A stretch of DNA of 63,361 nt, filler included, from Anaerolineae bacterium (GCA_029262755.1; 5 parts of 5 records of this genome joined end to end with filler, not necessarily neighbours in it), one strand, 5' to 3'. Numbered from the whole stretch's first letter, positions 17,808 through 54,996 are shown. The notes: generated by a model from the letters alone, not told the origin. Program-made: numbers and translations.

Positions 17808-17907
17808 NNNNNNNNNNNNNNNNNNNNNNNNNNNNNNNNNNNNNNNNNNNNTTAATTAATTAANNNNNNNNNNNNNNNNNNNNNNNNNNNNNNNNNNNNN
17901 NNNNNNN
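17808..17907. other. Artificial contig-joining spacer
   Basis: N-run/TTAATTAATTAA/N-run of 100 bp with stops in all frames. Confidence 0.98.
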
Positions 17908-28743: not shown

Positions 28744-28843
28744 NNNNNNNNNNNNNNNNNNNNNNNNNNNNNNNNNNNNNNNNNNNNTTAATTAATTAAN
28801 NNNNNNNNNNNNNNNNNNNNNNNNNNNNNNNNNNNNNNNNNNN
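28744..28843. other. Artificial contig-joining spacer
   Basis: N/TTAATTAATTAA/N, 100 bp. Confidence 0.98.
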
Positions 28844-32915: not shown

Positions 32916-33611
32916 GTGAGTGATTCGACGGAGCAACGAGCCGGCGCCGAAGCGCCGTCCGAGACGGCGGCCGGTCTGCGCCGGGGCGCGGACGGGCGGA
33001 CGCGTTGTTGGTGGTGCGGCGAGCACGAGGAGTACACCGTCTATCACGACACCGAATGGGGCTTCCCGGTGGACGACGACGTTCGGCTCTTCGAGAAGCT
33101 GGTGCTCGAAGGCTTTCAGTCCGGGCTCAGCTGGCTGACGATCCTGCGCAAGCGCGAGAACTTCCGCGCCGCCTTCGATGACTTCGACTTCGAGCGCATC
33201 GCGCGCTACGGCGATGCCGACATCGCCCGCTTGTTGGGCGATGCCGGCATCGTCCGGCACCGGGGCAAGATCGAGGCGACGATCAACAATGCGCAACGTG
33301 CCTGCGAGATGGTGGACGAGTGGGGCTCCTTGGCGGCCTTCGTCTGGCCGTATGAGCCGGCCGCGTCACAACGACCCGAGCGGATGGACTACGACGCGCT
33401 CATGCCGTTGTCGCAGACCGATGCCTCGCGTGCGTTGGCCAAGGACCTCAAGAAGCGTGGGTGGCGCTTCTTCGGCCCCACGACCGCCTACGCGTTCATG
33501 CAAGCGATGGGGCTGGTCAACGACCACCTCGAGGGCTGCGGGGTGCGACCGGAGGTGGAGGCCGCGCGCGCGGCGTTCACGCGTCCCGGACCTCAGGATC
33601 CACCCCGGTAG
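32916..33611 (+). CDS. tag: DNA-3-methyladenine glycosylase I
   Basis: 'RCWW...YHDTEWG.P..DD..LFEKLVLEGFQSGLSWLTILRKRENFRAAF...FFGPTTAYAFMQAMGLVNDH..GC'. Confidence 0.95.
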   Translation: MSDSTEQRAGAEAPSETAAGLRRGADGRTRCWWCGEHEEYTVYHDTEWGFPVDDDVRLFEKLVLEGFQSGLSWLTILRKRENFRAAFDDFDFERIARYGDADIARLLGDAGIVRHRGKIEATINNAQRACEMVDEWGSLAAFVWPYEPAASQRPERMDYDALMPLSQTDASRALAKDLKKRGWRFFGPTTAYAFMQAMGLVNDHLEGCGVRPEVEAARAAFTRPGPQDPPR

Positions 33612-35107
33612 GCCAGGGGCAGATGGATGGTGCGCGGGAACAATATGGGCGGGGGCGAAGGCGTTGTCGGGGCAAGGACGGTCGGCGTCGCCGGGAGCGC
33701 GGTGGGGTCGGGCAGGCCCGGGGTGTCCGTCGGTATCGACGTCGGCAGTGCGGTCGGCACTGCCGTCGGCTCGGTACTCGGAACCGCGGTCGGCTCGTTG
33801 GTCGGCGACGAGGTCGCGGTCGGCTCGGACGGGGGTGTGGCCGTTTGATCCGGTGGCGGGAAGCCGGCGCAGGGCGAGGTATCGTCCGGCTCGTGGATGC
33901 AGATGCTCGGGTTGGCGGCCGGGGCTTGGGCTTTGGTGCCGTCCAGGAAGTACAGGGACATTCCGGCCTGCTCCGATAGCTCCGTCACACCGACCTCCGC
34001 CTCCTCGTCCACGCGCAGCCGGTAGCGCAGCACACGTTCCGCGTGCTGGCCGCCGTCTTCCGCGTACCAGCCGAGCTCGCCGGCGAACGCGTAGTCCGGG
34101 TCGCGCGGCACGCCGCTGCCCGGTACGAAGTGAAGATCGAGGCGCGGCCGTTCGTGGTACTCGTCGGCCTCGACGCGCTTGCCTTGGGTCATCAGGGCGT
34201 CGGCTAGATCGAGGAACAGTTCCTTGAGATCGCTGCCGGACGCGGCCTGGGAGCGACGGAACCAGCCGGGGCTGGCACAGCCCGAACCGCGGCTGCCGGC
34301 GGTGTCCAACCCGACCACGACGAGCACGACGCCGGCCGTATGGGCGGCCCCGCAGGCGGTGGGATAGTCGATGAGCGGGCGTGTGATCACCGGTGCGCCA
34401 CCGTCCACGACGATGATGACGTTCGTCGCGTCTTCGTCGCCCGTGTGGGTGGGCAGGCGCTCCGTGGCGTCGCGGATGGCGGACGGGGCGCCGGCGGCGT
34501 TGCCGATGGGTTCGACGGAGATCGCGCGGATGCCTTGCAGCAACGCCACCTGTCCATCTCGTCCGCCGCGAAGCGCTACGCGGTGTGTGTAGTCCTTGGC
34601 GTACAGGGTCAGGCCGCCGGTGGAACCCTCTTCGTAGTCCATGCGGACCACGAAGTCGGTCAATGCTCCCTTCAGGTTGTCCAGCAGCTCGCGATGCGCC
34701 CCGTTGCCGCGCAGTACCTCGGTGTTTTCCACCAGCAAGAGAACGTTGATCCGGCGCTTCTTTTGCTGATGGCACCGGTAGCTCCACCGAACGGTCACCT
34801 CCACTGTTTCACCGCGCGCCAGGACCCGCCGATCCACCTCGCGCTGGATCTCGGGGTCGCAAGGGGCCACGACGGGCGTGCTGCCCTGCGCCGATGGCGC
34901 CGCGACGGTCGGCGGACCGGTGGGCGTGCCGGCGAGCGCCGCGGCGGCAACCAGGAGCGCGGAGGCCATGCGGAGGGCGCGTGGCTGCGTCGGCCGTGGC
35001 CGTGGCCGCGCTTGCAGTGCCGGGGGTCCACCACGTGGTCTCTTGGTTCGACCGCCTGTCGGATTCCGAGCGAAACGTTCGCCCCCGAGCAGTTCGTCTA
35101 CGTTCAT
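33593..35107 (-). CDS. Secreted vWA-like domain protein with Pro/Thr linker and C-terminal IHLP motif
   Basis: Signal peptide; vWA-like strand pattern with degenerate MIDAS (LLVENT, VVDGG); ends TIHLPLAYRGGS. Start may be downstream. Confidence 0.7.
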   Translation of the reverse strand: MNVDELLGGERFARNPTGGRTKRPRGGPPALQARPRPRPTQPRALRMASALLVAAAALAGTPTGPPTVAAPSAQGSTPVVAPCDPEIQREVDRRVLARGETVEVTVRWSYRCHQQKKRRINVLLLVENTEVLRGNGAHRELLDNLKGALTDFVVRMDYEEGSTGGLTLYAKDYTHRVALRGGRDGQVALLQGIRAISVEPIGNAAGAPSAIRDATERLPTHTGDEDATNVIIVVDGGAPVITRPLIDYPTACGAAHTAGVVLVVVGLDTAGSRGSGCASPGWFRRSQAASGSDLKELFLDLADALMTQGKRVEADEYHERPRLDLHFVPGSGVPRDPDYAFAGELGWYAEDGGQHAERVLRYRLRVDEEAEVGVTELSEQAGMSLYFLDGTKAQAPAANPSICIHEPDDTSPCAGFPPPDQTATPPSEPTATSSPTNEPTAVPSTEPTAVPTALPTSIPTDTPGLPDPTALPATPTVLAPTTPSPPPILFPRTIHLPLAYRGGS

Positions 35108-35376
35108 CCGTCGCCTCCCACGACCGCGCGATGGTCGGGCGGCTCCCGAATTGGTGCGGCGCGCGGTGTCGTAGGTTGGAGGCTAGGGGGTAGGCCGGTC
35201 GTAGCGCATGAGTCGAAGGGAGCAGCCGAGGGTCGTATCCGGGGGTCGCGTCCGGGGAGCTAAGGGGGGGCCGCCGGCGAGTGGCGTGCCGGAGAACGGC
35301 GTGCCGGTGGTTACGGGCTGGGTCCGTGGGGAGTGGGCCGAAGTCCTCGGCCTTCGATACAGGAACCGCGCGCGCC

Positions 35377-36189
35377 CTACTCCCCGAGACGGACGTGCGT
35401 CGCGATCTGATAGAGGTCGTTCGGGGTTGCCACGATGTCGGCCATGCACTCCGTGTCGGCGCGCGGGCCCACGGTGACGACGATCATGCGGATGCCGTTC
35501 GCTTTCACTGAGTGAGCCTCGTCGACGACGTCGTCGCATCGGCCGCGGTGCAGGCCGTCGGTGAGCAGGACGACCATCTCGGTCTCAGCGGCGGGGATGC
35601 CGGGGCTCTCACGTTGGATGACGAGTTCCTTCATGGCCTGGCGCAGGCCGGCGACGATGTTCGTGCCGAGACGGCTGCGCGACTGGTGGATGCAACCGAT
35701 GAGCCGGCGCTCATCGCGCATCAACCGGCAACCGGTGCGCGCGCGGTTGTCGAAGTGGACGACCCCGACCTCGACGTTCGCGTTGCGACGAATGTCGAGC
35801 AGCGCGAGCAGACGACGGGCCGCCTTCTTCGTCTCGAGGTTCAACCGGCCTTCCATCGAGTTTGAGCCGTCCATCACGAGCATGATCCGGGAGTCGAGCG
35901 GCAGGAAGGGTAGGCTGAGCAAGCGCCGGCCGAAGGGGCCCGGCGCTTGGATGACGTCCGGGGCGGATCCGTCTTCGGGGGCCCGTGCGACGTGGACGGG
36001 TTCGTCCAAAGCGCCGTCCGAGACGGCTACGGGTATGGGCATGGGCATGAGATCGACGTCGGCGATCCGGTCCGGACCCTTCGGTGCATCGGGGCCGGCG
36101 GCCGAGGCGGCGTGGCGATCGGCGCCGGCGAGCATGGCTAGCGCGACGAGCAGCGCGGGGACGAGGGCACAGCGGGTGGGGAGGCGCAT
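35377..36189 (-). CDS. Secreted vWA domain protein
   Basis: Signal peptide; MIDAS DGSNS, 'GTNI..GL', 'VLLTDG'; AGGAG RBS. Confidence 0.85.
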   Translation of the reverse strand: MRLPTRCALVPALLVALAMLAGADRHAASAAGPDAPKGPDRIADVDLMPMPIPVAVSDGALDEPVHVARAPEDGSAPDVIQAPGPFGRRLLSLPFLPLDSRIMLVMDGSNSMEGRLNLETKKAARRLLALLDIRRNANVEVGVVHFDNRARTGCRLMRDERRLIGCIHQSRSRLGTNIVAGLRQAMKELVIQRESPGIPAAETEMVVLLTDGLHRGRCDDVVDEAHSVKANGIRMIVVTVGPRADTECMADIVATPNDLYQIATHVRLGE

Positions 36190-37929: not shown

Positions 37930-39624
37930 ATGAGCAACCGCTACCAGCTGCGCACCTTCGGGTCGTTGCGCATCGAACACGAAGACCAGGTTATCGGCCG
38001 TTTCCTACATCATCGAATCCCGGACCGTCTCGTGGCTCTCGTCGCCGCGCATGATGGCTTGTTGTCGGTCGAGCGAGCGATCGAGCTCGTGTGGCCTGAC
38101 GAGCCGGCTCGTGATCCGCGCCTGCTGCTCAACGAAAACCTGTACCAACTACGCAAACGGCTCTCCGGATGGGGCGTCGATGCGGAGCTCGCCAAGTCGT
38201 TACTGCGCAACACGAACGCCGAGCTGGTGCTCGACACCGGTCTACGGACGGATCTGGACGCTTGGCGTCGTGTGGTGCGAGCGCCGATCGACGCGACCAC
38301 CGCGCCGACGGCTGCCCAAATCAAATGGGCGGAGCACCGGATGGCGGAAGGCTTCCTGACCGGGTTCGACGAACCATGGGCGCACGAAGCGCGGGCGCGA
38401 ATGGCCGCGCAATTGCGGCAGGTCACAGATGCCGTCGCCGGCGCACGCATGCGAACCGTGGTTTCCACGAACGCGCTACCGGGTGTGGCGTCGCTCGTTG
38501 CGAGGGTTGGCGCGCACACGGACCCACGCATCGGCGATGATCTGCCGGTCGACGACCTTCCGCGGGCCGCCGTCGAGCGGTCCGCGCGATACCTTTGCCA
38601 GGTCGCGCGTAGCCTGGAACCGGAGATGGTGGGTCCTCATCGCGACACGGCTCTCACGCTGCTCGATGGCTACGGTCCGCGCCTCGAGCGGGCCCACATG
38701 TGGGCGGTGGACGACGGCAAGCGGAGTTTGGCGGTCAGCTTCTGCGCCAGCCTTTGGCAATGGTGGCTCGATCGTCGGCAGTCCGGGGCCGCGCAGATCG
38801 TCGTGCGTTCGCTCTCCCTTCCCGGCCGCGGCGCCGAGCACGACGAAGCGCTTGCGCTACACGGCCTCGGCTGCCTGAACATGGCGTCGGGCGATCTGAA
38901 GATTGCCGAGCGCAACCTTTCTACAGCACTCGAAGCCTGGAAGCGGCTCAAGGATGACGGTCGGCTGGCACGGACGGTCGGGGCTATGGCCATGGTCCGC
39001 TACCGAAGCGGTGACTACGACCAGGCGCTGCGGTTGAACGAACAAGCGTTGGCCGTCCACCGTGCCGTTGGCGCCGAAGGACCGCTTGCGTACGCGCTCA
39101 ACGACCATGCGTTGATCGAGTGTGCGCTCAGCCGGACGACGGCGGCGCGCTTGTCGCTGCACGAGTCGATCTCCCTCTCGGAGTCCTTGGGGCTCGTTCG
39201 TGCCGCCGCGACTGCGCATGAACTCGCCGCGACGTTGGCGATCCAAGACGAGGACACGTTGAGCGCCGGAGCGCACTACGAGGAGGCCATCGCGGGCAAC
39301 GCCATCCTGGGCGATGCACGTCATCTGGCGAGCACCCTCCTCGGACGCGGTGCGATCGCGCATTGGCAACACGAGCACGGTCGCCGTGGAAACGAAGCGC
39401 TTGGAGAGGCCGAGGCCCTCTACCGTCGGGCGGAGGAAGTCTCGCGGGATAGCAGCGACCTCATCGGCGTGGGCGAGGCTCTACGCTTCCGCGCGTCCCT
39501 CGCCCTCGATCGGGGTGACCGCGAGGGTGCACGTCGTTTGGCGCAAACCTCGCTGGCCATCCTCGAGTCGGGTCGGCACGCGCACGCGGTCGATGCCTTG
39601 CGACGCATTCTCGATCAGGTATAG
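37930..39624 (+). CDS. SARP/AfsR-type regulator: wHTH, degenerate BTAD and TPR repeats
   Basis: 'LRTFGSLRI...LVWPDE......L...LYQLRKRL', 'GFLTGFDEPW...R'; C-terminal MalT-like TPRs. Confidence 0.75.
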   Translation: MSNRYQLRTFGSLRIEHEDQVIGRFLHHRIPDRLVALVAAHDGLLSVERAIELVWPDEPARDPRLLLNENLYQLRKRLSGWGVDAELAKSLLRNTNAELVLDTGLRTDLDAWRRVVRAPIDATTAPTAAQIKWAEHRMAEGFLTGFDEPWAHEARARMAAQLRQVTDAVAGARMRTVVSTNALPGVASLVARVGAHTDPRIGDDLPVDDLPRAAVERSARYLCQVARSLEPEMVGPHRDTALTLLDGYGPRLERAHMWAVDDGKRSLAVSFCASLWQWWLDRRQSGAAQIVVRSLSLPGRGAEHDEALALHGLGCLNMASGDLKIAERNLSTALEAWKRLKDDGRLARTVGAMAMVRYRSGDYDQALRLNEQALAVHRAVGAEGPLAYALNDHALIECALSRTTAARLSLHESISLSESLGLVRAAATAHELAATLAIQDEDTLSAGAHYEEAIAGNAILGDARHLASTLLGRGAIAHWQHEHGRRGNEALGEAEALYRRAEEVSRDSSDLIGVGEALRFRASLALDRGDREGARRLAQTSLAILESGRHAHAVDALRRILDQV

Positions 39625-40319: not shown

Positions 40320-42503
40320 TTAGCGGTCTGCGAGTCGGTGATTCTTGGTCACGAGGGGCATGTGGATACGGACCGCAGGCTCCCATGGAAGAGGTGTCGT
40401 CACAGGCGTCGTGACGCGCCAAGACGTGACCGCGCCGTCGCTGGTTAGCAACACCTCGCCGTCCGCGGCCGATAGATCGAATGCCGGCGTGTTGCCTGCG
40501 ATGGGCGCAAATCCGAAGGCCGCTCGCATCCGCTCCTCCGGACGGGTGGGGTCTGTGACGTCGAGCAAGGCCAGGACTCCTTCCAAGGGTCGTCCGGCGA
40601 CCGTCCACGCCGCCCACAGGTCTTGGCCGTCCGTCGCAAGCGCAACACGACCATGTGGGCCGAGGTCGATATCGGATGCCGTGCGTGGATCGGCTGGGTC
40701 GCGCAGATCGAGCGTGGTCAGCATACCCGTTGCGTCGAGCACGTGTCCCCAGCCTTCGTCGACGGCCATCGCGGCGATCGCAGCCGCGATGTTCACCCGA
40801 TAGGGCGCGGCCAGCTGGATCGGCAGGGCGGGATCACGCATATCATAGGCCGCGACGCTCGCGCCGTCGGCGACCCATGCCCGCTCATTGTCCATGGCCA
40901 TCGCGACGGCCTCGATCGATAGCGCAAATGGTTCGGGTGGATCGGCGGGCCAAGGCGAGCGATCGTCGAAGAGCAGAGCCGCGCCTCGGCCACTGATCAG
41001 AATCCGAGCTAGGACATGACCCGGGCCGGCGTTCATCTCGCGGTAGTCGCGCGTCAGACCTGTTTCGACGTTCCGGGCGACATAGCGCTGCGTCCCGTCC
41101 GCAGGGTCGATCGCGATCACCCCGGCTTCGCCTGCTGCGTAGAGCACATCGCCGCCGAGAGCGAGGTCCTGGATCGTGCCGGGCACGGTCGCGAGATGGG
41201 TGAATGCGGGATCATCCGGCTCGCGATCGGTCGCGGCACCGTCCGCGTCTACTTGCACCGAAATCGCGAAGACCTCTCCCGTGCGATCCGCGGCCCATGC
41301 AAGGCCCGGCGCACGCACGGCCGCGGTGACCGCCCGGGCCGAAGGGGCGCGTCGGGCGGGCTGGGGCACCACCAGGTCGGCACCCTCCACGATCCAGGCC
41401 ACGCCGGGCTCGTCGCCCGTGCTGAGCGCCCACATACGGCTGCCGGTCGGCACGAGATCGGCAATGGGCGCCTCGAGCCCCGTTGCCTCGTGGCGATCGG
41501 GAGCCGATGCCGGTGACCGGGGGTCGGAGATGTCGAAGGCCCACGGACCTCCGGAGGTCGCCATCCAGAGCGTGTCTCCGGCCAAGCGCAGGCTGCCGAT
41601 ATCCGTTGGAAGTGTGCCGGGTCGAGCCGCTCCGATCGTGGGCACGGCGTCCTCGCTCGGAACGGGATTGCGGATATCCACCAGGAGCACGCCCGCCGAC
41701 CACGCTGCCACGGCCAAGGTAGAGCCACGGGCTGCAAGCGCAACGGCGTCGGGAGGCAGGTGGCCGAGCTGTATCGAGCGCGGCGGTCCCAATCCCGCGT
41801 GCGACGAGGTGTCGATCATCCACAGGGATGCCCGCCCTTGGGGGCTGAGCCCCGACAACGGTGCGGGGGCGCTGAGCACCAGGACGCCATATGCGGTCGG
41901 TTCGATCGCACGAACGATGCCCGGCATGGGAATTCGGTACAGGAGGCGCGGACGCTCGGGTTGCGAGAGATCGAGGATGTCCAACCCTGTGCCGCCCGTG
42001 CTCTGCCATCCATAGCCACCAGCCACCTCGATCTGCTCCGGTACGGAACGCAGCGGTAGCGCTCCGACGAGGCGGACGGCGTCCGGCGCGCGTACATCGA
42101 ACCCGAGCAGCGATCCGCGCGCACCGGGAGCGCCCGCGACGGCCCACACCACGCCGGCGCCCGGCTGCGCGGCGAGACGGGTGAGCGGTTGTCCTTGGAT
42201 CGCGCTCTCGCGAAGTGGGGTCTCCAACGTGGTCGCTGCGACATCGTGCACCTCGAGCCGACCGCCGCGCGCCACGTAGAGGTGGGCGGCATCCGCGGTC
42301 ATGGCGGTCACGATGCCACCGACGACAGCGACCGGCCGGAGCACTTCGGCCTGCGCGGCGGCCTGCGCGGCGGACACTGCTTCGACGCGCGAAGTCGTAC
42401 GCGCATCCGTCGGCCCGCGCACAGAGGCGGCCGATAGGGTCGCGCACACTAGGAGCAAAGCGGTCGCGGGGGGCGCGATGCGGGAACGATTCGGAGGGAT
42501 CAT
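40320..42503 (-). CDS. Secreted LVIVD-like beta-propeller protein with C-terminal IHMP motif
   Basis: Signal peptide; repeats 'GL.ILD(L/I)S.P..P', 'D(L/V)RDPA.P'; ends VRIHMPLVTKNHRLADR. Confidence 0.75.
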   Translation of the reverse strand: MIPPNRSRIAPPATALLLVCATLSAASVRGPTDARTTSRVEAVSAAQAAAQAEVLRPVAVVGGIVTAMTADAAHLYVARGGRLEVHDVAATTLETPLRESAIQGQPLTRLAAQPGAGVVWAVAGAPGARGSLLGFDVRAPDAVRLVGALPLRSVPEQIEVAGGYGWQSTGGTGLDILDLSQPERPRLLYRIPMPGIVRAIEPTAYGVLVLSAPAPLSGLSPQGRASLWMIDTSSHAGLGPPRSIQLGHLPPDAVALAARGSTLAVAAWSAGVLLVDIRNPVPSEDAVPTIGAARPGTLPTDIGSLRLAGDTLWMATSGGPWAFDISDPRSPASAPDRHEATGLEAPIADLVPTGSRMWALSTGDEPGVAWIVEGADLVVPQPARRAPSARAVTAAVRAPGLAWAADRTGEVFAISVQVDADGAATDREPDDPAFTHLATVPGTIQDLALGGDVLYAAGEAGVIAIDPADGTQRYVARNVETGLTRDYREMNAGPGHVLARILISGRGAALLFDDRSPWPADPPEPFALSIEAVAMAMDNERAWVADGASVAAYDMRDPALPIQLAAPYRVNIAAAIAAMAVDEGWGHVLDATGMLTTLDLRDPADPRTASDIDLGPHGRVALATDGQDLWAAWTVAGRPLEGVLALLDVTDPTRPEERMRAAFGFAPIAGNTPAFDLSAADGEVLLTSDGAVTSWRVTTPVTTPLPWEPAVRIHMPLVTKNHRLADR

Positions 42504-42657
42504 GGCCCCAGGATAGCGTGACGGCGTCGGGGGAAACGCGCCCGAGTTTAAGGCGTGTCCGCCCGATCCGATTCGAGCGAGCAGACGGCGCTGGGGACAT
42601 TTGGGACACGACCAAGTACTACTACTTTCGTCCAGCGTGCCGATGCCGGTTGGACTA

Positions 42658-45411
42658 CTACCCCGCGTGCGGTTTTTCGAGCGGACGCTCACGGTGTAGT
42701 ACGAGCCAATCGCCGCTTTCGGCCAGCGCTTCTTCGCCGAGGCGTTGCAGGACGGCGCGGGCGGCACCTGGCTCCGTGTCGGATCCTACCGCATCGGACT
42801 CGTTCCCGTCGGATCCTCCGGTCTCCGCGATGGTGGTCAGACGGTGGGAGGCGGTGGCGAAGAGTTGCGCCATGCGCCCGTAGCGCTTGGCGTGTTCGGC
42901 TCGCGCGAGCAGCTCGTCGTAGGTATGGACCAGGCCCGCCGTAATTGCGGTCGTCGTGATCGTCAGCAGGAAGGCGCCGTGCCAGAGCGGCGTCTCGACC
43001 GTGTGCCGCAGGTCGACCAGCCACGGCAAGGGGAGCAGCAACGGGACGACGAGGATCACCGCCAGCAAGACGGTCGCGACGAGGCTCACGCCGAGCAGCG
43101 CCTTCACTGTGCGCTCGACCCGTTCGTGCGCCGCGTGCTCGCGCTCCGCCCGCTTCGAGAAATAGTCGCGTTGATCGTCGACCCAGGCGCGCCGGACGAA
43201 CGCGAGCGCGCCGGGAGCGAGGGGGGCGGCGCGCATAGATCCGTGCGGCGTGGCATCGTTTGGCGAGGCAGCGGTCGACGCGGCATCGGCCGGCAACGAA
43301 TCGTTCGGCGAAGTTCGTTCTGCTTCGACGGCGGCCGCGGCGCCGGGGAGGTGAGTCCGCCCTTCGGTGACCGCGGCGCCGGTGGGGCGAAGGTCAAGAG
43401 CGCGCAGGGCCCGGCGGATCCAGGCGAGCTCACCGCGCTGCATGCCGCGGTAGTGGTCCGCGACGTCGTCGTCGATGCCGACGGTCCGCCAGTAGAGCTG
43501 CACGCGCAGGGCTTCCGCCAGCGCGCGTGCGTCCTGGTGGCGGTTCTGGTGGTCACCGCGCTGCGCACGACGTGCCACCCATGGCGCGATGATCGTGCTG
43601 AACGCGAGGGAGAGCAGCAGAAAGGCCCAGGGGTTGGCCAGGATCCATGCGAGCAGGGAGCCCGGGTTCGAAGGCTCCGCTGCGTGGTCGGAGGCGTCGG
43701 GAGCGTGATCGGTCGTGAGGATTGCGTGTTCGGGTCCATCGGCCGTTGCGTCGGTCGCGATGTTCGCGACGTTCGCGTGCTCGACATCGACGGTCGCGTG
43801 CCCGTCCGTGTCACTCGCGGCGACGTTCGCGTGCTCGTCGTCGTCGGCCGTTGCGTCGGTCGCGTGCTCGTCGTCATCGGCCGTCGAAGCGTGGTCGGCA
43901 TCGGCGCTCGTACCGGTATCGGAGGCGTGGTCCGCGTCTTGGTTCGCCGCGGGTTCTTGGTGGCTTTCGTCCTCCGAGGCATGGTCGTCAGCCGGCGCGC
44001 TCGCGTGCGTGTCGCCGGCGACCGACGCTTCGGGCGCGTGCCCGTCGTCCGCGCTCTCCGCCTCGCCGTGGCCGCCGGCGGCCGGGGGGTGGGCCGGTAG
44101 GACGTGGAAGACGGCGAAGGCCATCGCCGCGCCGAAGACCACGCGAAAGAGCAGTAGGCGCGCACGCGCCGTGGCACGTTGGCCGAGGATCGCGAGGGCG
44201 TCCGCGGTGCCGAAGGCGTCGAGCGCGCCATGTGCTTCCGGCGGCAACGTTGCGACGGCGTCCGGGAGGTCCGCGGGCGATGATCCGAGGGCGTAGGCCC
44301 GGCCTTGTTCGGCCATGGCAACCAGGGCCTCGCCGTTGGCGACCACATCGGCGTTGAAGCGTTCCAACGCGTCGAGGGCGGCGTTCGGGTCCGGCGTGCC
44401 CGCCGCGGGCAGGATGCGCAACGTGCCGGCAGGAGGAGGGGTTGTTGGGCGCGATATAGGGTCGCTTGTACTACGGGTTGCGCTTGTACTACGGGTTGCG
44501 CTTGTACCACGGGTTGCGGTCGCGGGCGCGTTGGTGCGTGCGGTCCCCGGTCCGTTGTCGGACGCGGTTTCGTCTGTGGACGATGGGGCTGCGTCTGCTG
44601 GACCTGCTGCTGTACCTGCTGCACCTGCTGTACCTGCCACGCCGTCGCTCGAAGCGCGCGGGGTCCAGATATGGTGGACGGGACCGGCGTCGGTCGGCTC
44701 CAGGAGGTGAGCGGCGCGTACGTGCGGCGGCAGCAAGCCGGACGGCACGCCCTCGAGGCGGAAGCGGACGACGTCGGCCGTGCCCCCGCTACGCGCCGGA
44801 ACGCCGGGCACGCCGTCCCACAGCGCCAGCAGGACATGGGCGTGGCGCGCGAGGTAGGCACCGAGGTAGGCGTATTGTCGATCCCGGTCAGGGCCCGGGT
44901 GCGCCAGTTGGTCGGGGTCGACGCCTGGACCCGGCGGCAGCGTCCAGGTGGCGTATGCCTGCTCCAGCAGAGCATCGAGCTCGGCGCGGGACGCGTCGTC
45001 CGCCATCGTGGTGGCGTAGATCGCGCGGGGAAGCGGGAGCGGCACGACGAGGCGCGCCCCGGCTTCCAGACCGGCGCGGGCGACAATCCGGTCGGCTCCG
45101 TCGGCGAGCGGCGAGAGCAGGACGAGCGGCGCGTGGGGCGCGCGATGGTGCAGATCGTCCATCACTGCGCGTACCGCGGCGCGCAGGGCGGGCACGTCCT
45201 CGGGGCGCGGATCGCGGTGGCCCGTGACCGCGACGACGAGCGGCAACGGGCCGGGGGTCGCGCCCGACTGTGCATCGCGGATTGGCGAAGCCGCCGAGCC
45301 TGCGTCGGCCGCGTGCGGCGTTGCGGTCGCGTCCGATCGCTTGGCCGGGGAGCGCCCGCCCCGCGCCGTGGGCTTGTGATGCACGGCGTCTTCGCTCTTC
45401 GAATCAGACAC
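42658..45411 (-). CDS. SLOG (YspA/DprA/LOG-like) domain plus two SLATT-like transmembrane domains, with His/Asp-rich insertion
   Basis: 'VAVTGHR...LLSPLADGADR...LP...Y...G..L...HVLLALWDG...GGTADVV' is a SLOG signature; two TM hairpins followed by 'ARALAEALR' and 'W..DQ..YF...Y.RM...L..E..AE..DW' are SLATT-like; GTG 45411 overlaps the upstream stop and has a GGAG RBS. Confidence 0.75.
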   Translation of the reverse strand: MSDSKSEDAVHHKPTARGGRSPAKRSDATATPHAADAGSAASPIRDAQSGATPGPLPLVVAVTGHRDPRPEDVPALRAAVRAVMDDLHHRAPHAPLVLLSPLADGADRIVARAGLEAGARLVVPLPLPRAIYATTMADDASRAELDALLEQAYATWTLPPGPGVDPDQLAHPGPDRDRQYAYLGAYLARHAHVLLALWDGVPGVPARSGGTADVVRFRLEGVPSGLLPPHVRAAHLLEPTDAGPVHHIWTPRASSDGVAGTAGAAGTAAGPADAAPSSTDETASDNGPGTARTNAPATATRGTSATRSTSATRSTSDPISRPTTPPPAGTLRILPAAGTPDPNAALDALERFNADVVANGEALVAMAEQGRAYALGSSPADLPDAVATLPPEAHGALDAFGTADALAILGQRATARARLLLFRVVFGAAMAFAVFHVLPAHPPAAGGHGEAESADDGHAPEASVAGDTHASAPADDHASEDESHQEPAANQDADHASDTGTSADADHASTADDDEHATDATADDDEHANVAASDTDGHATVDVEHANVANIATDATADGPEHAILTTDHAPDASDHAAEPSNPGSLLAWILANPWAFLLLSLAFSTIIAPWVARRAQRGDHQNRHQDARALAEALRVQLYWRTVGIDDDVADHYRGMQRGELAWIRRALRALDLRPTGAAVTEGRTHLPGAAAAVEAERTSPNDSLPADAASTAASPNDATPHGSMRAAPLAPGALAFVRRAWVDDQRDYFSKRAEREHAAHERVERTVKALLGVSLVATVLLAVILVVPLLLPLPWLVDLRHTVETPLWHGAFLLTITTTAITAGLVHTYDELLARAEHAKRYGRMAQLFATASHRLTTIAETGGSDGNESDAVGSDTEPGAARAVLQRLGEEALAESGDWLVLHRERPLEKPHAG
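44463..44516. repeat. 18-bp tandem repeat x3 within the SLOG-SLATT linker
   Basis: CGCTTGTACTACGGGTTG x2 plus CGCTTGTACCACGGGTTG; encodes ATR(S/G)TS repeats. Confidence 0.9.
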
Positions 45412-47401
45412 GATCGGTCTCCACGGGGGGCGGGGGCGTGCGCACGATCTGCAGTCCGGCGCGGAACAGGGCGCGCGGCAGATCGCGCACGGCCTGGCGG
45501 TTCGTCTCGCGCGCCGATTCGGGAAGCTGGTCCCACGGCACCAGATGCGGGTTTTGCTTGCGCTCGGTGTTTCGCGGTCCGACGCTCCATCCGGCCGCTC
45601 GGCGCGCGCTGAGCCAGCGCTCATGCTCCTGGCGGGCCATGGCATCCAAGTGCGCTTCGGGAAAGTGCAGATTGAGCGACGACCAATCGCCGAGCGGTCC
45701 GATCTCATAGCCCAACTCGGATAGCTTACGCACGGCATCGTCGGCCTGCACGCGGTTGGCCTCGCGCACTGTCTCGGGAAGATCGGGCCACGGGCGCATC
45801 GCCCGGTGCGCCTCGGCCTCGACGCCGAGCGCGCGCTGTTGGGCCACGTAGCCGGCGTGTGCCGCACGTGCCAGGAGCTCCGTCGCGCCGCCGAGGACCA
45901 GCTCCGGGCGACAGGCTTCGTCCAAGACGCCCACGGTCCGAAGGGGTGGCGGCTCTACACCGCCGGGCCGCGTGGTATCGGCCCGGGCGCTGTCATCCAG
46001 CTCGCGCACGAGCAGCCCGAGGCCGCGGTCCCGGTCGAGGCGCAGGATGATCGGGGCGCTCCGTCCGCGCGCGACGAACGCGGCGCGCACTTGGAGCGCG
46101 GCGGTCACCGCATCCGGCTCGTGCTCGAGGCAAATGAAGACGGCGTCCGCCGCGCCGCCGGGCGTGAAGGCACGGCCGGCCGCGGCGGAACGTGGGCCGG
46201 GTGTGGTGGACGAGGGGCCGGGGGTGGTGGGAGTGGGAAGCGGGGTGGAGGGGTCGAGGGTGGCGGGTGCGCCGGGTATCGTGGACGCGCTCGGTGTGGC
46301 GGGATCGGGATGATCCGGTCGCTTGAGGCCGGCGTCTTCCGCACCGTCCGCGGCGGTCGGAGGCGGGTTGATCGTGAATGCCGCGCCCATCTGTGAGAGA
46401 TCGGGTGCTTGCTCCATCGCCCGAATCTGCACTATGTCGTTCAAACCCGGATGCGTGCCGTGGAGACCCATCGTCGTCGCATCTGCGTCCTCGCCGAACA
46501 GCGTCACCTGCATCGGCTCCCTGCGGCCGGCGAGCCACCAATCACGCGCGGCATGGAGCACAAGGTGGCGCGCGAGACGCCCCGAGCCCACCACGAGCAG
46601 CCGGCGCGGGTCGCCTTGTTCGGGCGGCGGGAGGGCAGCGGCATCCAACATGGCGCGCGCCGCGATATCGGCGACGTGGAAGAAAGAGAGCCGCAGGCCG
46701 GAGTCGCCGGACAGCTCCCATTGGCGTAGCAGCGCCCACAGGTGCGCGTCGACGATGTGTACCGCACCGGTGAGCGGCGTCGAGCGGCCCTTCGCGAAGG
46801 GGCGCAAGCGCGCGGTCACCTCGGCGTTCACGCGGTCGTCGCCGCAGGTCACGATCACGTCGCGCGCCACGGCGACGCGTGCGCGGGTCAGGACGTCCGG
46901 CTCCGTCGCGTCGCCCACGACGACCACCGCGCCGAGGGCACGCGCCTCGCCGAGGGCCGGATGCGCCTCGTCGAGCTCGACGACCGCGACCCGGTCGCCG
47001 CGTTCCGCGAAACGATGCAAGAGCAAGTGTCCCTCTGCGCCGAGACCGCAGACCACGACATGGTCGCGCAGGCGGCGGGCGCGCAGGGGCTCGAAGGGGT
47101 CGAAGCGCACCAGATAGGCCGCCACGGTGGCTGTCGCGACGCTGACGATGCCGATGCCCACGGCCATCAACAACGTGGCGATCATGCGGCCACCGGCGGT
47201 GATGGGCGCGATATCGCCGTAGCCCACGGTCGTCAGCGTCACGACGGCCCACCAGAGGCTGTCCTGCCACGATCCGACGTCCGGGTTGGCGACCCGCTCG
47301 GTCGCGTGGAAGCCCGCGGCGCCGATCGCGATCGTGGCCGCGACAAGGGTGAGCAGAACGCGCAGCGTTGCGCGGAGCGAGCGGCCGCTTGTCGTACGCA
47401 T
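45404..47401 (-). CDS. Potassium channel (2TM, TVGYGD) with two TrkA-N/RCK domains and C-terminal RyR-repeat domain
   Basis: 'WWAVVTLTTVGYGDIAP' selectivity filter; Rossmann motifs 'VVCGLGAEG' and 'VVGSGRLA'; RyR-type 'LARAAH..Y...PWPDLPE..REAN' and 'MARQEHERW...R..GW..G.R...K.NP.LVPW.QL'. Confidence 0.88.
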   Translation of the reverse strand: MRTTSGRSLRATLRVLLTLVAATIAIGAAGFHATERVANPDVGSWQDSLWWAVVTLTTVGYGDIAPITAGGRMIATLLMAVGIGIVSVATATVAAYLVRFDPFEPLRARRLRDHVVVCGLGAEGHLLLHRFAERGDRVAVVELDEAHPALGEARALGAVVVVGDATEPDVLTRARVAVARDVIVTCGDDRVNAEVTARLRPFAKGRSTPLTGAVHIVDAHLWALLRQWELSGDSGLRLSFFHVADIAARAMLDAAALPPPEQGDPRRLLVVGSGRLARHLVLHAARDWWLAGRREPMQVTLFGEDADATTMGLHGTHPGLNDIVQIRAMEQAPDLSQMGAAFTINPPPTAADGAEDAGLKRPDHPDPATPSASTIPGAPATLDPSTPLPTPTTPGPSSTTPGPRSAAAGRAFTPGGAADAVFICLEHEPDAVTAALQVRAAFVARGRSAPIILRLDRDRGLGLLVRELDDSARADTTRPGGVEPPPLRTVGVLDEACRPELVLGGATELLARAAHAGYVAQQRALGVEAEAHRAMRPWPDLPETVREANRVQADDAVRKLSELGYEIGPLGDWSSLNLHFPEAHLDAMARQEHERWLSARRAAGWSVGPRNTERKQNPHLVPWDQLPESARETNRQAVRDLPRALFRAGLQIVRTPPPPVETDRV

Positions 47402-48513
47402 CAGGCTCCGTCGCCGGGCAGGTCGAGGAATCGCTCCAGATCCGCGAAGAGCGCGCGCACGGCCTCCGGTCGGACGGTGTGGCGCGCTTTGCGGCCCTCG
47501 CGCAGCGTCTCGATCAGCCCCGCCTCACGCAGCTGGCGGGCGTGGATGCTCACGGTCGGCCGCGCGAGCTCCAGATAAGCGGCGATCTGCGTATTGTCCA
47601 GGTCCAGGTGACGGATCAGGCGGAGGATCCGCAGGCGGGTGGGGTCAGCCACGGCCTTCAGCCGCACGGAGAGATCCTCGGCGAACGCGCCGAGCTGCCG
47701 GTAGAGGACGCCCGGTTGGGCGAAGGCGGTGATCGCCAGCCCGGGCAGCAGGATCAGCACGTCGTAGTGGCCGAGCGGCTCAACCAGGAAGAACACCCGC
47801 ATCCGGCCGGCGCTCACAGCCTCGTGCAAACCCGGCTTGTTCACCAAGGGGTTCTGCGGCGGCAGCCATTCGAGGGACGGCGGATTGGCCGCGTGTTCAC
47901 GAGCGCCGAGCTCCATGAGCCCGTGTCGCTCGAGCGCATCGGTCTCCGTGACTCGTTCGGCATGCCAATCGCGGTACGTGCTGTAGTAGAAGCGGTCGAG
48001 CAGGTGCCAGAACCGGCTGTGGAGATCGCCGCCTTGTAGCAGTCGGGGTAGCTGCGCAAGGTGGTGAACCTCGGGGTCGTGGCGCTCGGCGGACTTCACC
48101 ATGCCGACCGAGCCGTACACGGCCGCGGAGGTGTGTTCCCAGAGGTTCACGAGTTGCTCGCCCGGCGACAGATCGGGGTCCGGCTTGACGCCCGCCTCCG
48201 CGGCGCGGGCCGTCATGCGCGCCAGGGCCGTGGGCAGGTCGAGCTCGCGCATGGCGCGCGTCGCGGGGCCGTAGCGCTCCTCGAAGAGCACGTCGGACAG
48301 CCACGCCAGCACGATTGGGATCGGGACGGTGCTACGCAGCGGCCCGAACAGCTCCTCCCAAGCTTCGCGCCACTCCTCGGAGACGACCAAGGACAGCGAG
48401 GCCATTTCTCGTGGCAGCTCGGAAAGCGGCAGCCGGCCGCTCGCGCCGTAGAGGGCAAGGCCCAACTCCAGCGCGATCGACCGGCTGAGAATCCAGCCCG
48501 AATTGTCTGCCAT
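47401..48513 (-). CDS. ArsR/SmtB-family regulator with large N-terminal domain and C-terminal wHTH
   Basis: 'LKAVADPTRLRILRLI...IAAYLELARPTVSIHARQLREAGLI...REGR'; TGATG overlap with the channel gene. Confidence 0.85.
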   Translation of the reverse strand: MADNSGWILSRSIALELGLALYGASGRLPLSELPREMASLSLVVSEEWREAWEELFGPLRSTVPIPIVLAWLSDVLFEERYGPATRAMRELDLPTALARMTARAAEAGVKPDPDLSPGEQLVNLWEHTSAAVYGSVGMVKSAERHDPEVHHLAQLPRLLQGGDLHSRFWHLLDRFYYSTYRDWHAERVTETDALERHGLMELGAREHAANPPSLEWLPPQNPLVNKPGLHEAVSAGRMRVFFLVEPLGHYDVLILLPGLAITAFAQPGVLYRQLGAFAEDLSVRLKAVADPTRLRILRLIRHLDLDNTQIAAYLELARPTVSIHARQLREAGLIETLREGRKARHTVRPEAVRALFADLERFLDLPGDGA

Positions 48514-48604
48514 GGCGTCCCCTACCGGCGATCGTCGGTACGCCCCCAGCGGAGGACGTGGGGTGGACGATAGCCGGTAGGGAACGCGAACGGTAGCCCG
48601 GTGG

Positions 48605-48778
48605 CTACAGGATGCGCCCCAGATCGAACACCGCACAGTAGGCGCGCGGACTCATCGGCGGGGCGTCGAAAGCGTTGCTTTCGATCTTGGAATCATGCCG
48701 GCCACCGATAGCATATCGAGCACTGGGGCGCTCGCTGCGCGGGCGGCGAAGTCGACGGATCAAGGATCGTTCACTCAT
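48605..48778 (-). CDS. Putative 57-aa small protein upstream of the ArsR gene
   Basis: Below the ORF-track cutoff; GGAGG RBS then MSERSLIRRLRRPRSERPSARYAIGGRHDSKIESNAFDAPPMSPRAYCAVFDLGRIL*. Confidence 0.45.
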   Translation of the reverse strand: MSERSLIRRLRRPRSERPSARYAIGGRHDSKIESNAFDAPPMSPRAYCAVFDLGRIL

Positions 48779-48803
48779 CGTAGGTTTCCTCCAACGTGTT
48801 ACA

Positions 48804-48874
48804 AGTAGTCAAACGTCTACTAGACAAGAGTATACACCCGACTACGCGTAATGCAACCCGGTCAGTGTTAGAAT
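48804..48874. promoter_or_regulatory. Divergent promoter region with palindromic operator
   Basis: Minus strand TTGCAT-N16-TATACT (48856-48829); plus strand TGtTAGAAT (48866-48874); palindromes AGTAGTC-aaac-GTCTACT (48804-48821) and GTCTAcTAGAC (48815-48825). Confidence 0.45.
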
Positions 48875-48913
48875 GGCGTGAGCATCGGCGCGGTACCGGG
48901 GGGCGCCCACGCG

Positions 48914-49234
48914 ATGAGCCACGTCTTCATCTCCTATAGCCACAAGAACAAGGACTTCGCCTACCGGCTGGCCGACGCCCTCGCGGCGCTCGGCCTGCCC
49001 GCATGGATCGATCGCGAGGGCATCCGCGCCGGCGATCGGTGGAGCACGTCCATCCAAGAGGGCCTGGATGTCTGCCGGGTGCTCGTGGTCGTGCTTTCTC
49101 CGCCCGCCATGGAATCACCCAACGTCGAGGACGAGTGGCAGTACTTCCTCGACCAGGGCAAGCCGATCCTCCCCGTGCTCCACCAGCCGGCCAAGATCCA
49201 CTTCCAACTCAGCCGCAAGCAGTACATCGACTTC
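48914..49234 (+). CDS. TIR (TIR_2) domain protein, truncated by contig end
   Basis: 'VFISYSHKNKDFA..L...L...G..AWID...I..GD.W...I..GL..C......LSP....S.NV.DEW', with the catalytic-position Glu present. Confidence 0.9.
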
Positions 49235-49334
49235 NNNNNNNNNNNNNNNNNNNNNNNNNNNNNNNNNNNNNNNNNNNNTTAATTAATTAANNNNNNNNNN
49301 NNNNNNNNNNNNNNNNNNNNNNNNNNNNNNNNNN
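49235..49334. other. Artificial contig-joining spacer
   Basis: N/TTAATTAATTAA/N, 100 bp. Confidence 0.98.
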
Positions 49335-54896: not shown

Positions 54897-54996
54897 NNNN
54901 NNNNNNNNNNNNNNNNNNNNNNNNNNNNNNNNNNNNNNNNTTAATTAATTAANNNNNNNNNNNNNNNNNNNNNNNNNNNNNNNNNNNNNNNNNNNN
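54897..54996. other. Artificial contig-joining spacer
   Basis: N/TTAATTAATTAA/N, 100 bp. Confidence 0.98.

Follow-up and report, generated by a model that had tools for sequence, protein, structure and literature searches.

A bacterial K+ channel with a ryanodine-receptor-type R12 domain and its SLOG-SLATT partner form a candidate TIR-responsive membrane cassette

What is the function of a bacterial K+ channel with a C-terminal ryanodine-receptor (RyR, or R12) domain, and of the gene with which it is paired? The question is raised by a locus of an Anaerolineae bacterium (GCA_029262755.1) lying within a stretch of 63,361 nucleotides (nt), filler included, which was analyzed as a whole and is called the window here. 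The core of the locus is a translationally coupled two-gene membrane cassette, consisting of a K+ channel gene (P0002) and a gene for a SLOG-SLATT protein (P0001), with an ArsR-type gene (P0003) ahead of the channel and a TIR gene transcribed divergently (Table 1). We favor, with somewhat better than even confidence, the reading that this is a Thoeris-like, TIR-signal-responsive membrane effector cassette with two sensors, an R12 domain on the K+ channel and a SLOG domain on the SLATT protein. A first-pass annotation of the window had proposed a Thoeris-like or stress module in which a TIR-derived nucleotide opens a SLATT/K+ channel complex; comparative and literature evidence supports much of this idea, the physical complex itself being hypothetical, but the ArsR gene has to be removed from the module and the role of the window's own TIR as a dedicated ThsB-like signal maker is in doubt. 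Thoeris-like signaling with membrane effectors is already known, and the main interest lies in a bacterial K+ channel bearing a complete R12 domain.

The source genome is a draft of 5,056,438 bases in 428 contigs and is 84% complete. Five of its contigs are joined in the window by four N44-TTAATTAATTAA-N44 linkers (17808-17907, 28744-28843, 49235-49334 and 54897-54996); these joins are artificial, so genes on the two sides of a linker are not true neighbors. The locus occupies the right end of the contig at 28844-49234 (G000:C184, 20,391 bases) and comprises three open reading frames (ORFs) on the minus strand, P0003 (47401-48636), P0002 (45404-47401) and P0001 (42658-45411). Their stops and starts overlap as the first-pass annotation had described: the TGA of P0003 and the ATG of P0002 share a single base (TGATG, 47399-47403), and the GTG start of P0001 (45411-45409) lies 5 nt before the TGA of the channel (45406-45404), giving an overlap of 8 nt. 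A start at this GTG fits P0004, the nearest homologue, which has an 'MSD' N-terminus. The genome carries one RyR gene and one SLOG-SLATT gene.

P0002 has both a T[VI]GYG filter and a TrkA_N domain, as is expected of a K+ channel with RCK; we read it as a channel of the tetramer type, with RCK and R12 on a cytosolic tail. Its earlier description as a TVGYGD channel with an RyR-repeat domain was borne out by the filter, which begins at residue 58, by a Pfam Ion_trans_2 match (E 1.6e-17) over the two-transmembrane (2TM) pore, and by an RyR match (E 3.1e-17) that resolves into two tandem repeats. Two RCK (TrkA-N) domains had also been claimed; one is found (TrkA_N, E 1.6e-14), but the second is unconfirmed because there is a single TrkA_N stretch and no Pfam family was matched by residues 255-420 (E<=0.1). 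This middle region holds a conserved Rossmann-like stretch with a GxGxxG-like 'VGxGRL' motif, and the insert that follows is rich in Pro/Ala/Thr. In an alignment of the nine SLOG-SLATT-linked channels, T[VI]GYGD is invariant throughout. The RyR domain (PF02026) scores 63 bits against a cut-off of 27.4 over its two repeats and matches the R12 domains of RyR1-3 in PDB at an E of about 1e-17. Phage proteins of the same family bind isomers of cyclic ADP-ribose (cADPR). According to the available text of its report (PMC13232231, May 2026), phage RyDEP is an R12 homodimer that binds and cleaves 2'/3'cADPR via His75/Asp117, with Trp78 stacking on the adenine and His100 contacting the phosphates, and six of eight phage RyDEP homologues bound signals; RyR Tad, as described in the accessible part of a second report (10.64898/2026.06.04.730250, June 2026), binds 3'cADPR at 43 nM and both 2'cADPR and cADPR at <1 uM. 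The RyDEP sequence, taken by accession from its paper, was aligned to the channel repeats. Residues H515, Y518, N549, H593, W596 and N634 are invariant in the channel alignment. Both repeats of all nine channels thus keep the ligand motif H..W in its His and its aromatic position; repeat B retains His and Trp (HERW) and repeat A retains His and Tyr. A tblastn search of the P0002 R12 domain against 50,697 phage records matched five records, DyoEdafos not among them.

P0001 has 112 homologues among the 8000 candidates scored, with lengths of about 600 amino acids (aa). SLOG and SLATT were reportedly defined by Burroughs et al. in 2015. The AlphaFold2 model of P0001 has a mean predicted local distance difference test (pLDDT) of 72.5 and a predicted template modeling score (pTM) of 0.73, and residues 51-259 form a confident alpha/beta domain with pLDDT >90 across residues 51-200. 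The best Foldseek matches of this domain are YpsA (2nx2; E 1.3e-3, TM-score 0.66 on the target), ShosA, DprA, LOG and Moco-carrier proteins, all of which we take to be members of the SLOG superfamily; with the whole model as query Foldseek returned nothing at E<=1e-3, and the SLOG call rests on this ranking and not on E-values. P0001 itself falls below the Pfam cut-offs (YAcAr, 25.7 bits against 28.2; SLATT_1, 19.6 against 26.3). Among 27 aligned family members, NCBIfam assigns SLATT_3 to 14 and SLATT_1 to 11, and Pfam assigns DUF4231 to 11, SLATT_3 to nine, SLATT_1 to eight and YAcAr to five. The proposal of a SLOG protein with two SLATT modules, for which profile searches had been named as the check, is thus upheld for the family and by fold, but not by Pfam on the window protein itself. 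Three hydrophobic segments and one further helix make up the two 2TM hairpins, which appear as long helices in the model; the SLOG head would be cytosolic. Three disordered inserts are lineage-specific, and two of them contain short DNA tandem repeats; the loop of the first hairpin has pLDDT <50 at residues 453-581, and its coding DNA includes a 33-bp repeat present 2.9 times. A shorter loop of His/Asp occupies this site in the nearest homologue, and no loop is present in the 25 remaining aligned members; the loop in P0001 may be a metal-binding outer loop. A complex prediction of P0001 residues 51-445 with P0002 residues 495-665 scored 0.00, which informs neither way.

The pairing of these two genes is conserved. 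A survey with the family alignment, made on a single genome for each species, verified 581 of its 601 candidate stretches; the best 79 of the 581 serve here as the related loci. In eight of the 79 (L001-L004, L006, L007, L012 and L022) the gene directly upstream, on the same strand, is a full channel (pore, RCK, middle region and RyR). A metagenome scan with the channel alignment, which used pore motifs, recovered L119 as the sole full-length relative, with a SLOG-SLATT gene that overlaps the end of the channel by 4 nt; the other 79 of its 80 loci were generic K+ channels and were reused as a control. The pair of channel-RyR and SLOG-SLATT consequently recurs in nine other places, eight genome loci and one metagenome contig. 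A quick maximum-likelihood tree of 73 rows, calculated after rows of <450 aa had been dropped, placed the nine channel-linked SLOG-SLATT proteins within one 13-row clade (Shimodaira-Hasegawa-like approximate likelihood ratio test support 100) that spans rows labeled Abditibacteriota, Acidobacteriota and an Actinomycetota-labeled metagenome-assembled genome. The remaining four rows of the clade are Acidobacteriota in which a TIR gene lies directly upstream and the channel is missing. P0001 sits on a long branch among Abditibacteriota rows, with support values of 93 and 86. In the lineage of the window the full-length channel is rare, occurring in two of 40 relatives, both of which lack the GYG filter. 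Such a sister form, 2TM-RCK-RyR with 'LQL..L.SG' replacing T[VI]GYG, was seen in L069, L073, L104-L107, L109, L082 and L083 and is predicted to be filter-less or non-K+. As a separate observation, a SLOG-SLATT gene adjoins an RyR-free K+ channel in two of the 79 generic metagenome loci (L172, 3177-4928; L141, 2469-2903). Six Abditibacteria-type loci share, next to the channel, a protein of about 295 aa that has Tll0287-like and HAMP domains but lacks an output domain; its gene is directly upstream of the channel in five of them and further upstream in L006.

TIR genes are enriched around this family. Using a TIR hidden Markov model (HMM) built from Pfam-verified neighbors, a TIR ORF was found near the SLOG-SLATT gene in 34 of the 79 loci; among the 74 complete SLOG-SLATT ORFs, this held for 28 of the 42 loci flanked by 5 kb or more on each side and for six of the 32 others, and the TIR gene was <=411 bp away in 19 loci. 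With the same HMM, none of the 80 K+-channel-centered metagenome loci had a match (521,819 bases, against 1,038,708 for the family). The enrichment of TIR genes at homologous operons, on which the first-pass annotation had made its proposal depend, is therefore present. Whole-genome counts of TIR_2 in six genomes of 3.5-8 Mb were 10 (the genome studied here), 6, 47, 2, 7 and 0. Channel-bearing pairs have a TIR gene in six cases out of ten (the window, L001, L004, L006, L007 and L012), and the short flanks of L003, L022 and L119 showed none. The TIR domain is joined to varied partners, including a short unknown tail, kinase, FGE-sulfatase, SH3, TPR, nSTAND1 and NACHT-WD40. The surroundings of the cassette in the flanks of L001, L007, L012 and L073 also contain caspase (Peptidase_C14)-PEGA-TPR, caspase-WD40 and TIR-STAND-TPR/WD40 proteins. 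L001 and L012 have a Bestrophin-like gene just upstream of TIR, and GlcNAc-2-epimerase-like genes, some with STAS, occur in L001, L012, L002 and L004.

RyR domains are enriched around the family as well, with RyR ORFs in 14 of the 79 loci that take the form of K+ channel-RCK-RyR, GYG-less 2TM-RCK-RyR, AAA-ATPase-RyR or stand-alone RyR. The RyR half of the channel matches 10 of 400 other genomes of the phylum (E<=1e-8). Eleven stretches centered on RyR were scanned in turn: four have a TIR ORF (L106, L109, L111 and L112), four have a match to the SLOG-SLATT HMM (L109, L113, L114 and, weakly, L111), and three have neither TIR nor SLOG (L104, L105 and L107). The outputs to which RyR is fused are varied (K+ pore-RCK, 2TM-RCK, AAA/STAND, TPR-S-cyclase and RelA_SpoT), as is usual for sensor domains. 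Two arrangements are recorded as side observations. An apparent operon on the minus strand of L109 (4592-13207) encodes AAA-RyR (893 aa), a SLOG-only protein (183 aa), RCK-RyR (579 aa), TIR-WD40 (1081 aa) and RyR (101 aa). RyR is also combined with RelA_SpoT (PF04607) and PF18171, the latter presumably the prokaryotic TRPM-type SLOG domain, or with TPR-S and an adenylate/guanylate cyclase, in P0124, P0126 and P0122 and at L111 9588-11669 and L112 2838-5687.

A pair that is conserved across phyla and usually lies beside TIR genes looks like a bacterial immune effector. We hypothesize that a neighboring TIR protein, in this genome probably of a large TIR-cyclase-STAND type, would be activated by a trigger such as phage infection and would convert NAD+ into a cADPR-type nucleotide. 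This nucleotide would be read by the SLOG head, upon which the SLATT hairpins would open or oligomerize, and by R12 and/or RCK, which would gate the K+ pore; the cell would then lose its ion gradients and membrane potential and arrest or die. As far as the accessible text of the literature goes, phage R12 proteins and the SLOG domain of ThsA bind cADPR isomers, and operons of TIR with SLATT or of TIR with an ion channel defend against phage. We infer from these precedents that the R12 and SLOG domains described here would bind such a signal, that binding would gate the pores, and that the outcome would be defense. Judged by its domains, the locus appears to pair an effector of the type that binds TIR-made nucleotides, through both the SLOG fold and R12, with an adjoining TIR that has the Glu, this TIR being a paralogue-like fragment.

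Thoeris types V-XI were validated in a preprint of December 2025 (10.64898/2025.12.03.692087); in its available text, type VII is a TIR protein with the SLATT effector ThsH and canonical cADPR as the signal, and type X, from Bacillus sp. BH32, is a TIR protein with the ion-channel effector ThsK, the signal of which is unknown. The earlier remark that no characterized system includes a channel of this kind is outdated by type X. The architecture of channel-R12 plus SLOG-SLATT may be among the 29 putative Thoeris types of the same preprint. Type VII resembles the present locus in that TIR adjoins a SLATT-type 2TM effector proposed to breach the membrane upon nucleotide binding, but P0001 has two 2TM modules, is headed by an N-terminal SLOG domain and has a K+ channel gene coupled to its own; ThsH, in the description available, binds its ligand in pockets between SLATT protomers. 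With type X the locus shares an ion channel as the effector of a TIR operon; the description available for ThsK mentions no SLOG-SLATT partner. Like ThsA of type I Thoeris (SIR2-SLOG, activated by 3'cADPR), P0001 has a SLOG-fold sensor beside TIR genes, but its output is a membrane module instead of a SIR2 NADase, no ThsA model of PADLOC or NCBIfam matches it, and its nearest solved folds are YpsA, ShosA and DprA, with no ThsA chain among the Foldseek rows shown. RCK-gated K+ channels of the MthK/GsuK type have the same order of 2TM pore, T[VI]GYGD filter and TrkA_N/RCK; P0002 differs from them in its C-terminal R12 domain and in its obligate pairing with a SLOG-SLATT gene, its second RCK being unconfirmed. 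RyDEP (DyoEdafos gp78, PDB 35TM) and RyR Tad (Pectobacterium phage CB1 gp68) share PF02026 with P0002, including the His and aromatic residue of the H..W motif, but these phage proteins are soluble single-repeat homodimers that defeat defense, whereas P0002 carries two repeats on a host channel. Both 2026 preprints, in the text available, close by asking what binding of cADPR isomers means for the R12 domains of channels. The accessible parts of PMC13232231, 10.64898/2026.06.04.730250 and 10.64898/2025.12.03.692087 do not treat host RyR-domain genes, two Aravind-group surveys, in their available text, make no mention of RyR, and a search of the available library combining RyR with SLATT/SLOG, TIR, potassium channel or Thoeris found no description of a host-encoded RyR system.

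Several observations weigh against the Thoeris-like reading, beginning with those on the TIR gene of the window. The first-pass annotation had described a divergent TIR gene that retains the catalytic-position Glu. The TIR_2 match and the alignment of this Glu with that of AbTIR ('NYELDG'), which we take to be the catalytic residue, bear this out, but only 107 residues are known because the gene is cut by the contig end at 49234 (linker from 49235). Its start (ATG 48914) is about 400 bp from the upstream end of the operon. The fragment is 55-64% identical to seven paralogues in the same genome and at most 42% identical to the TIRs of other SLOG-SLATT loci; ThsB models match it weakly (PADLOC, 1.8e-4), and NCBIfam ThcB4 gives 31 bits against a cut-off of 220. 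The seven paralogues (948-1356 aa; contigs C277, C223, C255, C315, C218, C30 and C8) have TIR near the N-terminus, and the four that were scanned are multi-domain proteins of 1059-1356 aa, with a cyclase domain in three, NACHT or AAA in three, and an FGE-sulfatase or TPR end in all four. Because it is closer to these paralogues than to the TIRs of other SLOG-SLATT loci, the window TIR is probably the head of a large TIR-cyclase-STAND protein, as judged by similarity, and for that reason its dedication to making a signal in the manner of ThsB is doubtful. The Thoeris survey, in its accessible text, excluded Avs-type TIR proteins as probable NAD+-depleting effectors (10.64898/2025.12.03.692087). 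A possible but doubtful alternative, then, is that the cassette is a nucleotide-signal effector while the window TIR, one of eight Avs-like TIR-cyclase-STAND copies, does not make its signal. None of the seven paralogues lies beside a SLOG or RyR gene, and the window TIR is transcribed divergently, outside the operon, as this alternative would have it; with 10 TIR ORFs in 5.06 Mb, however, chance would rarely put a TIR start within about 400 bp of the upstream end of the operon (by our estimate roughly 1% when the interval allowed is a few kb), and TIR-STAND and TIR-WD40 proteins adjoin the family in L001, L032, L073 and L109. The window TIR is a plausible signal maker of the cassette.

The R12 repeats contribute further counterevidence. 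The position of RyDEP Asp117 is Asn in both repeats of all nine channels, and that of His100 is Asn in repeat B; in repeat A the window keeps His there, and the eight relatives have Asn. Two of the four ligand residues named for RyDEP are therefore lacking from the repeats. Because of the Asn at the Asp117 and His100 positions, the ligand of the channel R12 may, as far as the residues indicate, differ from that of RyDEP, or binding may be lost. A RyDEP-like hydrolase, with the catalytic dyad His75/Asp117, was also considered and was rejected as unlikely, since the His is kept but the Asp is replaced in both repeats. Every prokaryote-world R12 protein characterized so far is, in the literature available, a sponge or a hydrolase, and stand-alone RyR genes with the Asp of RyDEP occur in neighborhoods of this kind (for example L073, 7163-7498), with other stand-alone RyR genes in L109 and L114. 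R12 might accordingly serve as a host buffer or off-switch that sequesters the TIR signal to set a threshold, leaving RCK alone to gate the channel and SLOG-SLATT as the sole signal-activated killer. We regard this as very improbable: the fusion of R12 to many output modules fits a sensor better, the invariant Asn speaks against hydrolysis, and it would be strange for a pore to carry four tethered copies of a sponge.

The remaining points against the Thoeris-like reading concern neighborhood and databases. No TIR match was found in 14 of the 42 loci with full flanks, nor in the channel-bearing L002, which has 8 kb on each side. Two relatives of the same family or order have 2TM-RCK-RyR without GYG, one of them followed by an ORF that is not SLOG-SLATT. 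The other genes on the contig of the window (vWA, methyladenine glycosylase and a secreted repeat protein) are not known defense genes. The PADLOC check that had been suggested matched no system: no model matches the channel, none matches P0001 at E<=0.01, and no NCBIfam Thoeris effector model matches any of 27 SLOG-SLATT family members. The missing TIR matches and the contig neighbors would also suit a housekeeping or stress module with no immune role, in which the channel and SLOG-SLATT protein tune K+ and membrane potential to levels of adenine nucleotides or NAD+/ADP-ribose, with RCK and SLOG as sensors, ArsR/SmtB-type regulation in this genome and no dedicated TIR signal. The overlap of the ArsR-type gene with the channel start, the presence of a Tll0287-like and HAMP sensor protein at the corresponding position in six Abditibacteria-type loci and the activation of the dual-RCK channel GsuK by ADP and NAD+ (PMC3510474, accessible part) point the same way. 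We nevertheless consider such a module unlikely, given the TIR enrichment over the control loci, the caspase, STAND and TIR-STAND genes around several loci, the patchy spread of both the full-length channel and its RyR part, a family clade that crosses phyla, and the conflict systems from which both SLATT and SLOG are known to date (PMC9503650, available text).

The ArsR-type gene itself is real. The regulator named in the first-pass annotation is supported by a domain of the helix-turn-helix (HTH) type above the cut-offs of both Pfam HTH_5 (E 7.2e-11, 42.2 bits against 22) and NCBIfam HTH_metalloreg (57.7 bits against 55). Its membership in the conserved system was rejected because neither half of P0003 was matched in any of the 79 SLOG-SLATT loci; P0003 is a lineage-specific regulator outside that system. 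The N-terminal portion of roughly 290 aa matches no Pfam family, and a protein atlas pointed to DUF5937-ArsR clusters (0.89), which is taken as a lead only. The reading frame is open back to GTG 48636, giving 370-411 aa depending on the start, and in our judgment ATG 48513 is the likelier one. A hairpin precedes this ATG (-56.1 kcal/mol; z -4.13; none of 200 shuffles as stable), and ahead of the hairpin lies a 57-aa Arg-rich ORF (48605-48778, minus strand) with GGAGGA 8 nt before its ATG. Hairpin and ORF together may constitute a leader or attenuator.

Table 1. Positions of features of the locus (window coordinates) and of the Tll0287-like proteins of related loci (coordinates of each locus).
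Feature	Position	Strand	Basis or remark
P0001, 917 aa, SLOG head and two 2TM SLATT-like modules	42658..45411	-	three low-complexity inserts
SLOG-fold domain, residues 51-259	44635..45261	-	invariant GHR, AxGxD, ALWDG and GGT motifs
First 2TM hairpin, transmembrane segments 419-437 and 586-604	43600..44157	-	hydrophobic segments; DUF4231 in 11/27 family members
Disordered loop, 134 aa, Ala/Asp/His/Glu-rich, residues 448-581	43669-44070	-	between the transmembrane helices of the first hairpin
Second 2TM hairpin, transmembrane segment 775-793 and helix 808-835	42922..43089	-	model and hydrophobicity; SLATT_1 sub-threshold at residues 744-784
P0002 channel, 665 aa	45404..47401	-	2TM K+ pore, RCK, second Rossmann-like stretch, insert rich in Pro, two tandem RyR (R12) repeats
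K+ selectivity filter TVGYG, residues 58-62	47216..47230	-	motif position
RCK/TrkA_N domain, residues 115-201	46799..47059	-	Pfam TrkA_N, E 1.6e-14
Two tandem RyR/R12 repeats, residues 508-569 and 587-654	45440..45880	-	own HMM
P0003, N-terminal domain and C-terminal ArsR/SmtB winged HTH (47509-47646)	47401..48513	-	HTH profiles
Leader hairpin, 22-nt arms, 91% complementary	48515..48587	-	ends 2 nt before ATG 48513
TIR protein, N-terminal 107 aa	48914..49234	+	TIR_2, E 1.9e-27; divergent, cut by contig end
Tll0287-like and HAMP protein	L001 5108-5995; L003 678-1568; L006 83-955; L007 5200-6072; L012 4960-5886; L022 35-922		

A promoter scan of the locus gave no sites, no terminator-like site was found after P0001 (all four sites detected lie inside genes), and Rfam had no match at E<=0.1 within 42300-49234. 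Upstream on the same contig are two vWA-domain ORFs and a TPR regulator-like ORF of 564 aa (33593-36189 and 37930-39624), and P0001 is followed by a secreted repeat protein of 790-815 aa with a weak LVIVD match.

Eukaryotic ryanodine receptors and TRPM channels resemble the pair described here in being cation channels that bear an R12 or a SLOG domain, TRPM channels carrying a SLOG-type head; they differ in that the pore and overall protein are not homologous, and in the pair each sensor domain sits on a protein of its own. We propose, tentatively and with less confidence than the cassette reading itself, that R12 is the ligand sensor of a prokaryotic K+ channel gated by a cADPR-type nucleotide, that the sensing of TIR-made nucleotides is ancestral, and that the operon prototypes the heads of RyR and TRPM. 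If true, eukaryotic ryanodine-receptor and TRPM channels would have, for their two nucleotide-sensor heads, a bacterial prototype in this locus. Bacteria, plants and animals all use TIR-made nucleotides as immune signals, and a direct action of cADPR on ryanodine receptors is a matter of long dispute. The locus, together with its relatives, provides a cation channel of bacterial origin that is small and tractable and has a complete R12 domain amid TIR neighborhoods, so the question of cADPR acting on an R12 channel is directly testable with a bacterial protein. With the cassette, the Thoeris family would gain an architecture of two effectors, the K+ channel and SLOG-SLATT, and host-encoded RyR domains would gain a role.

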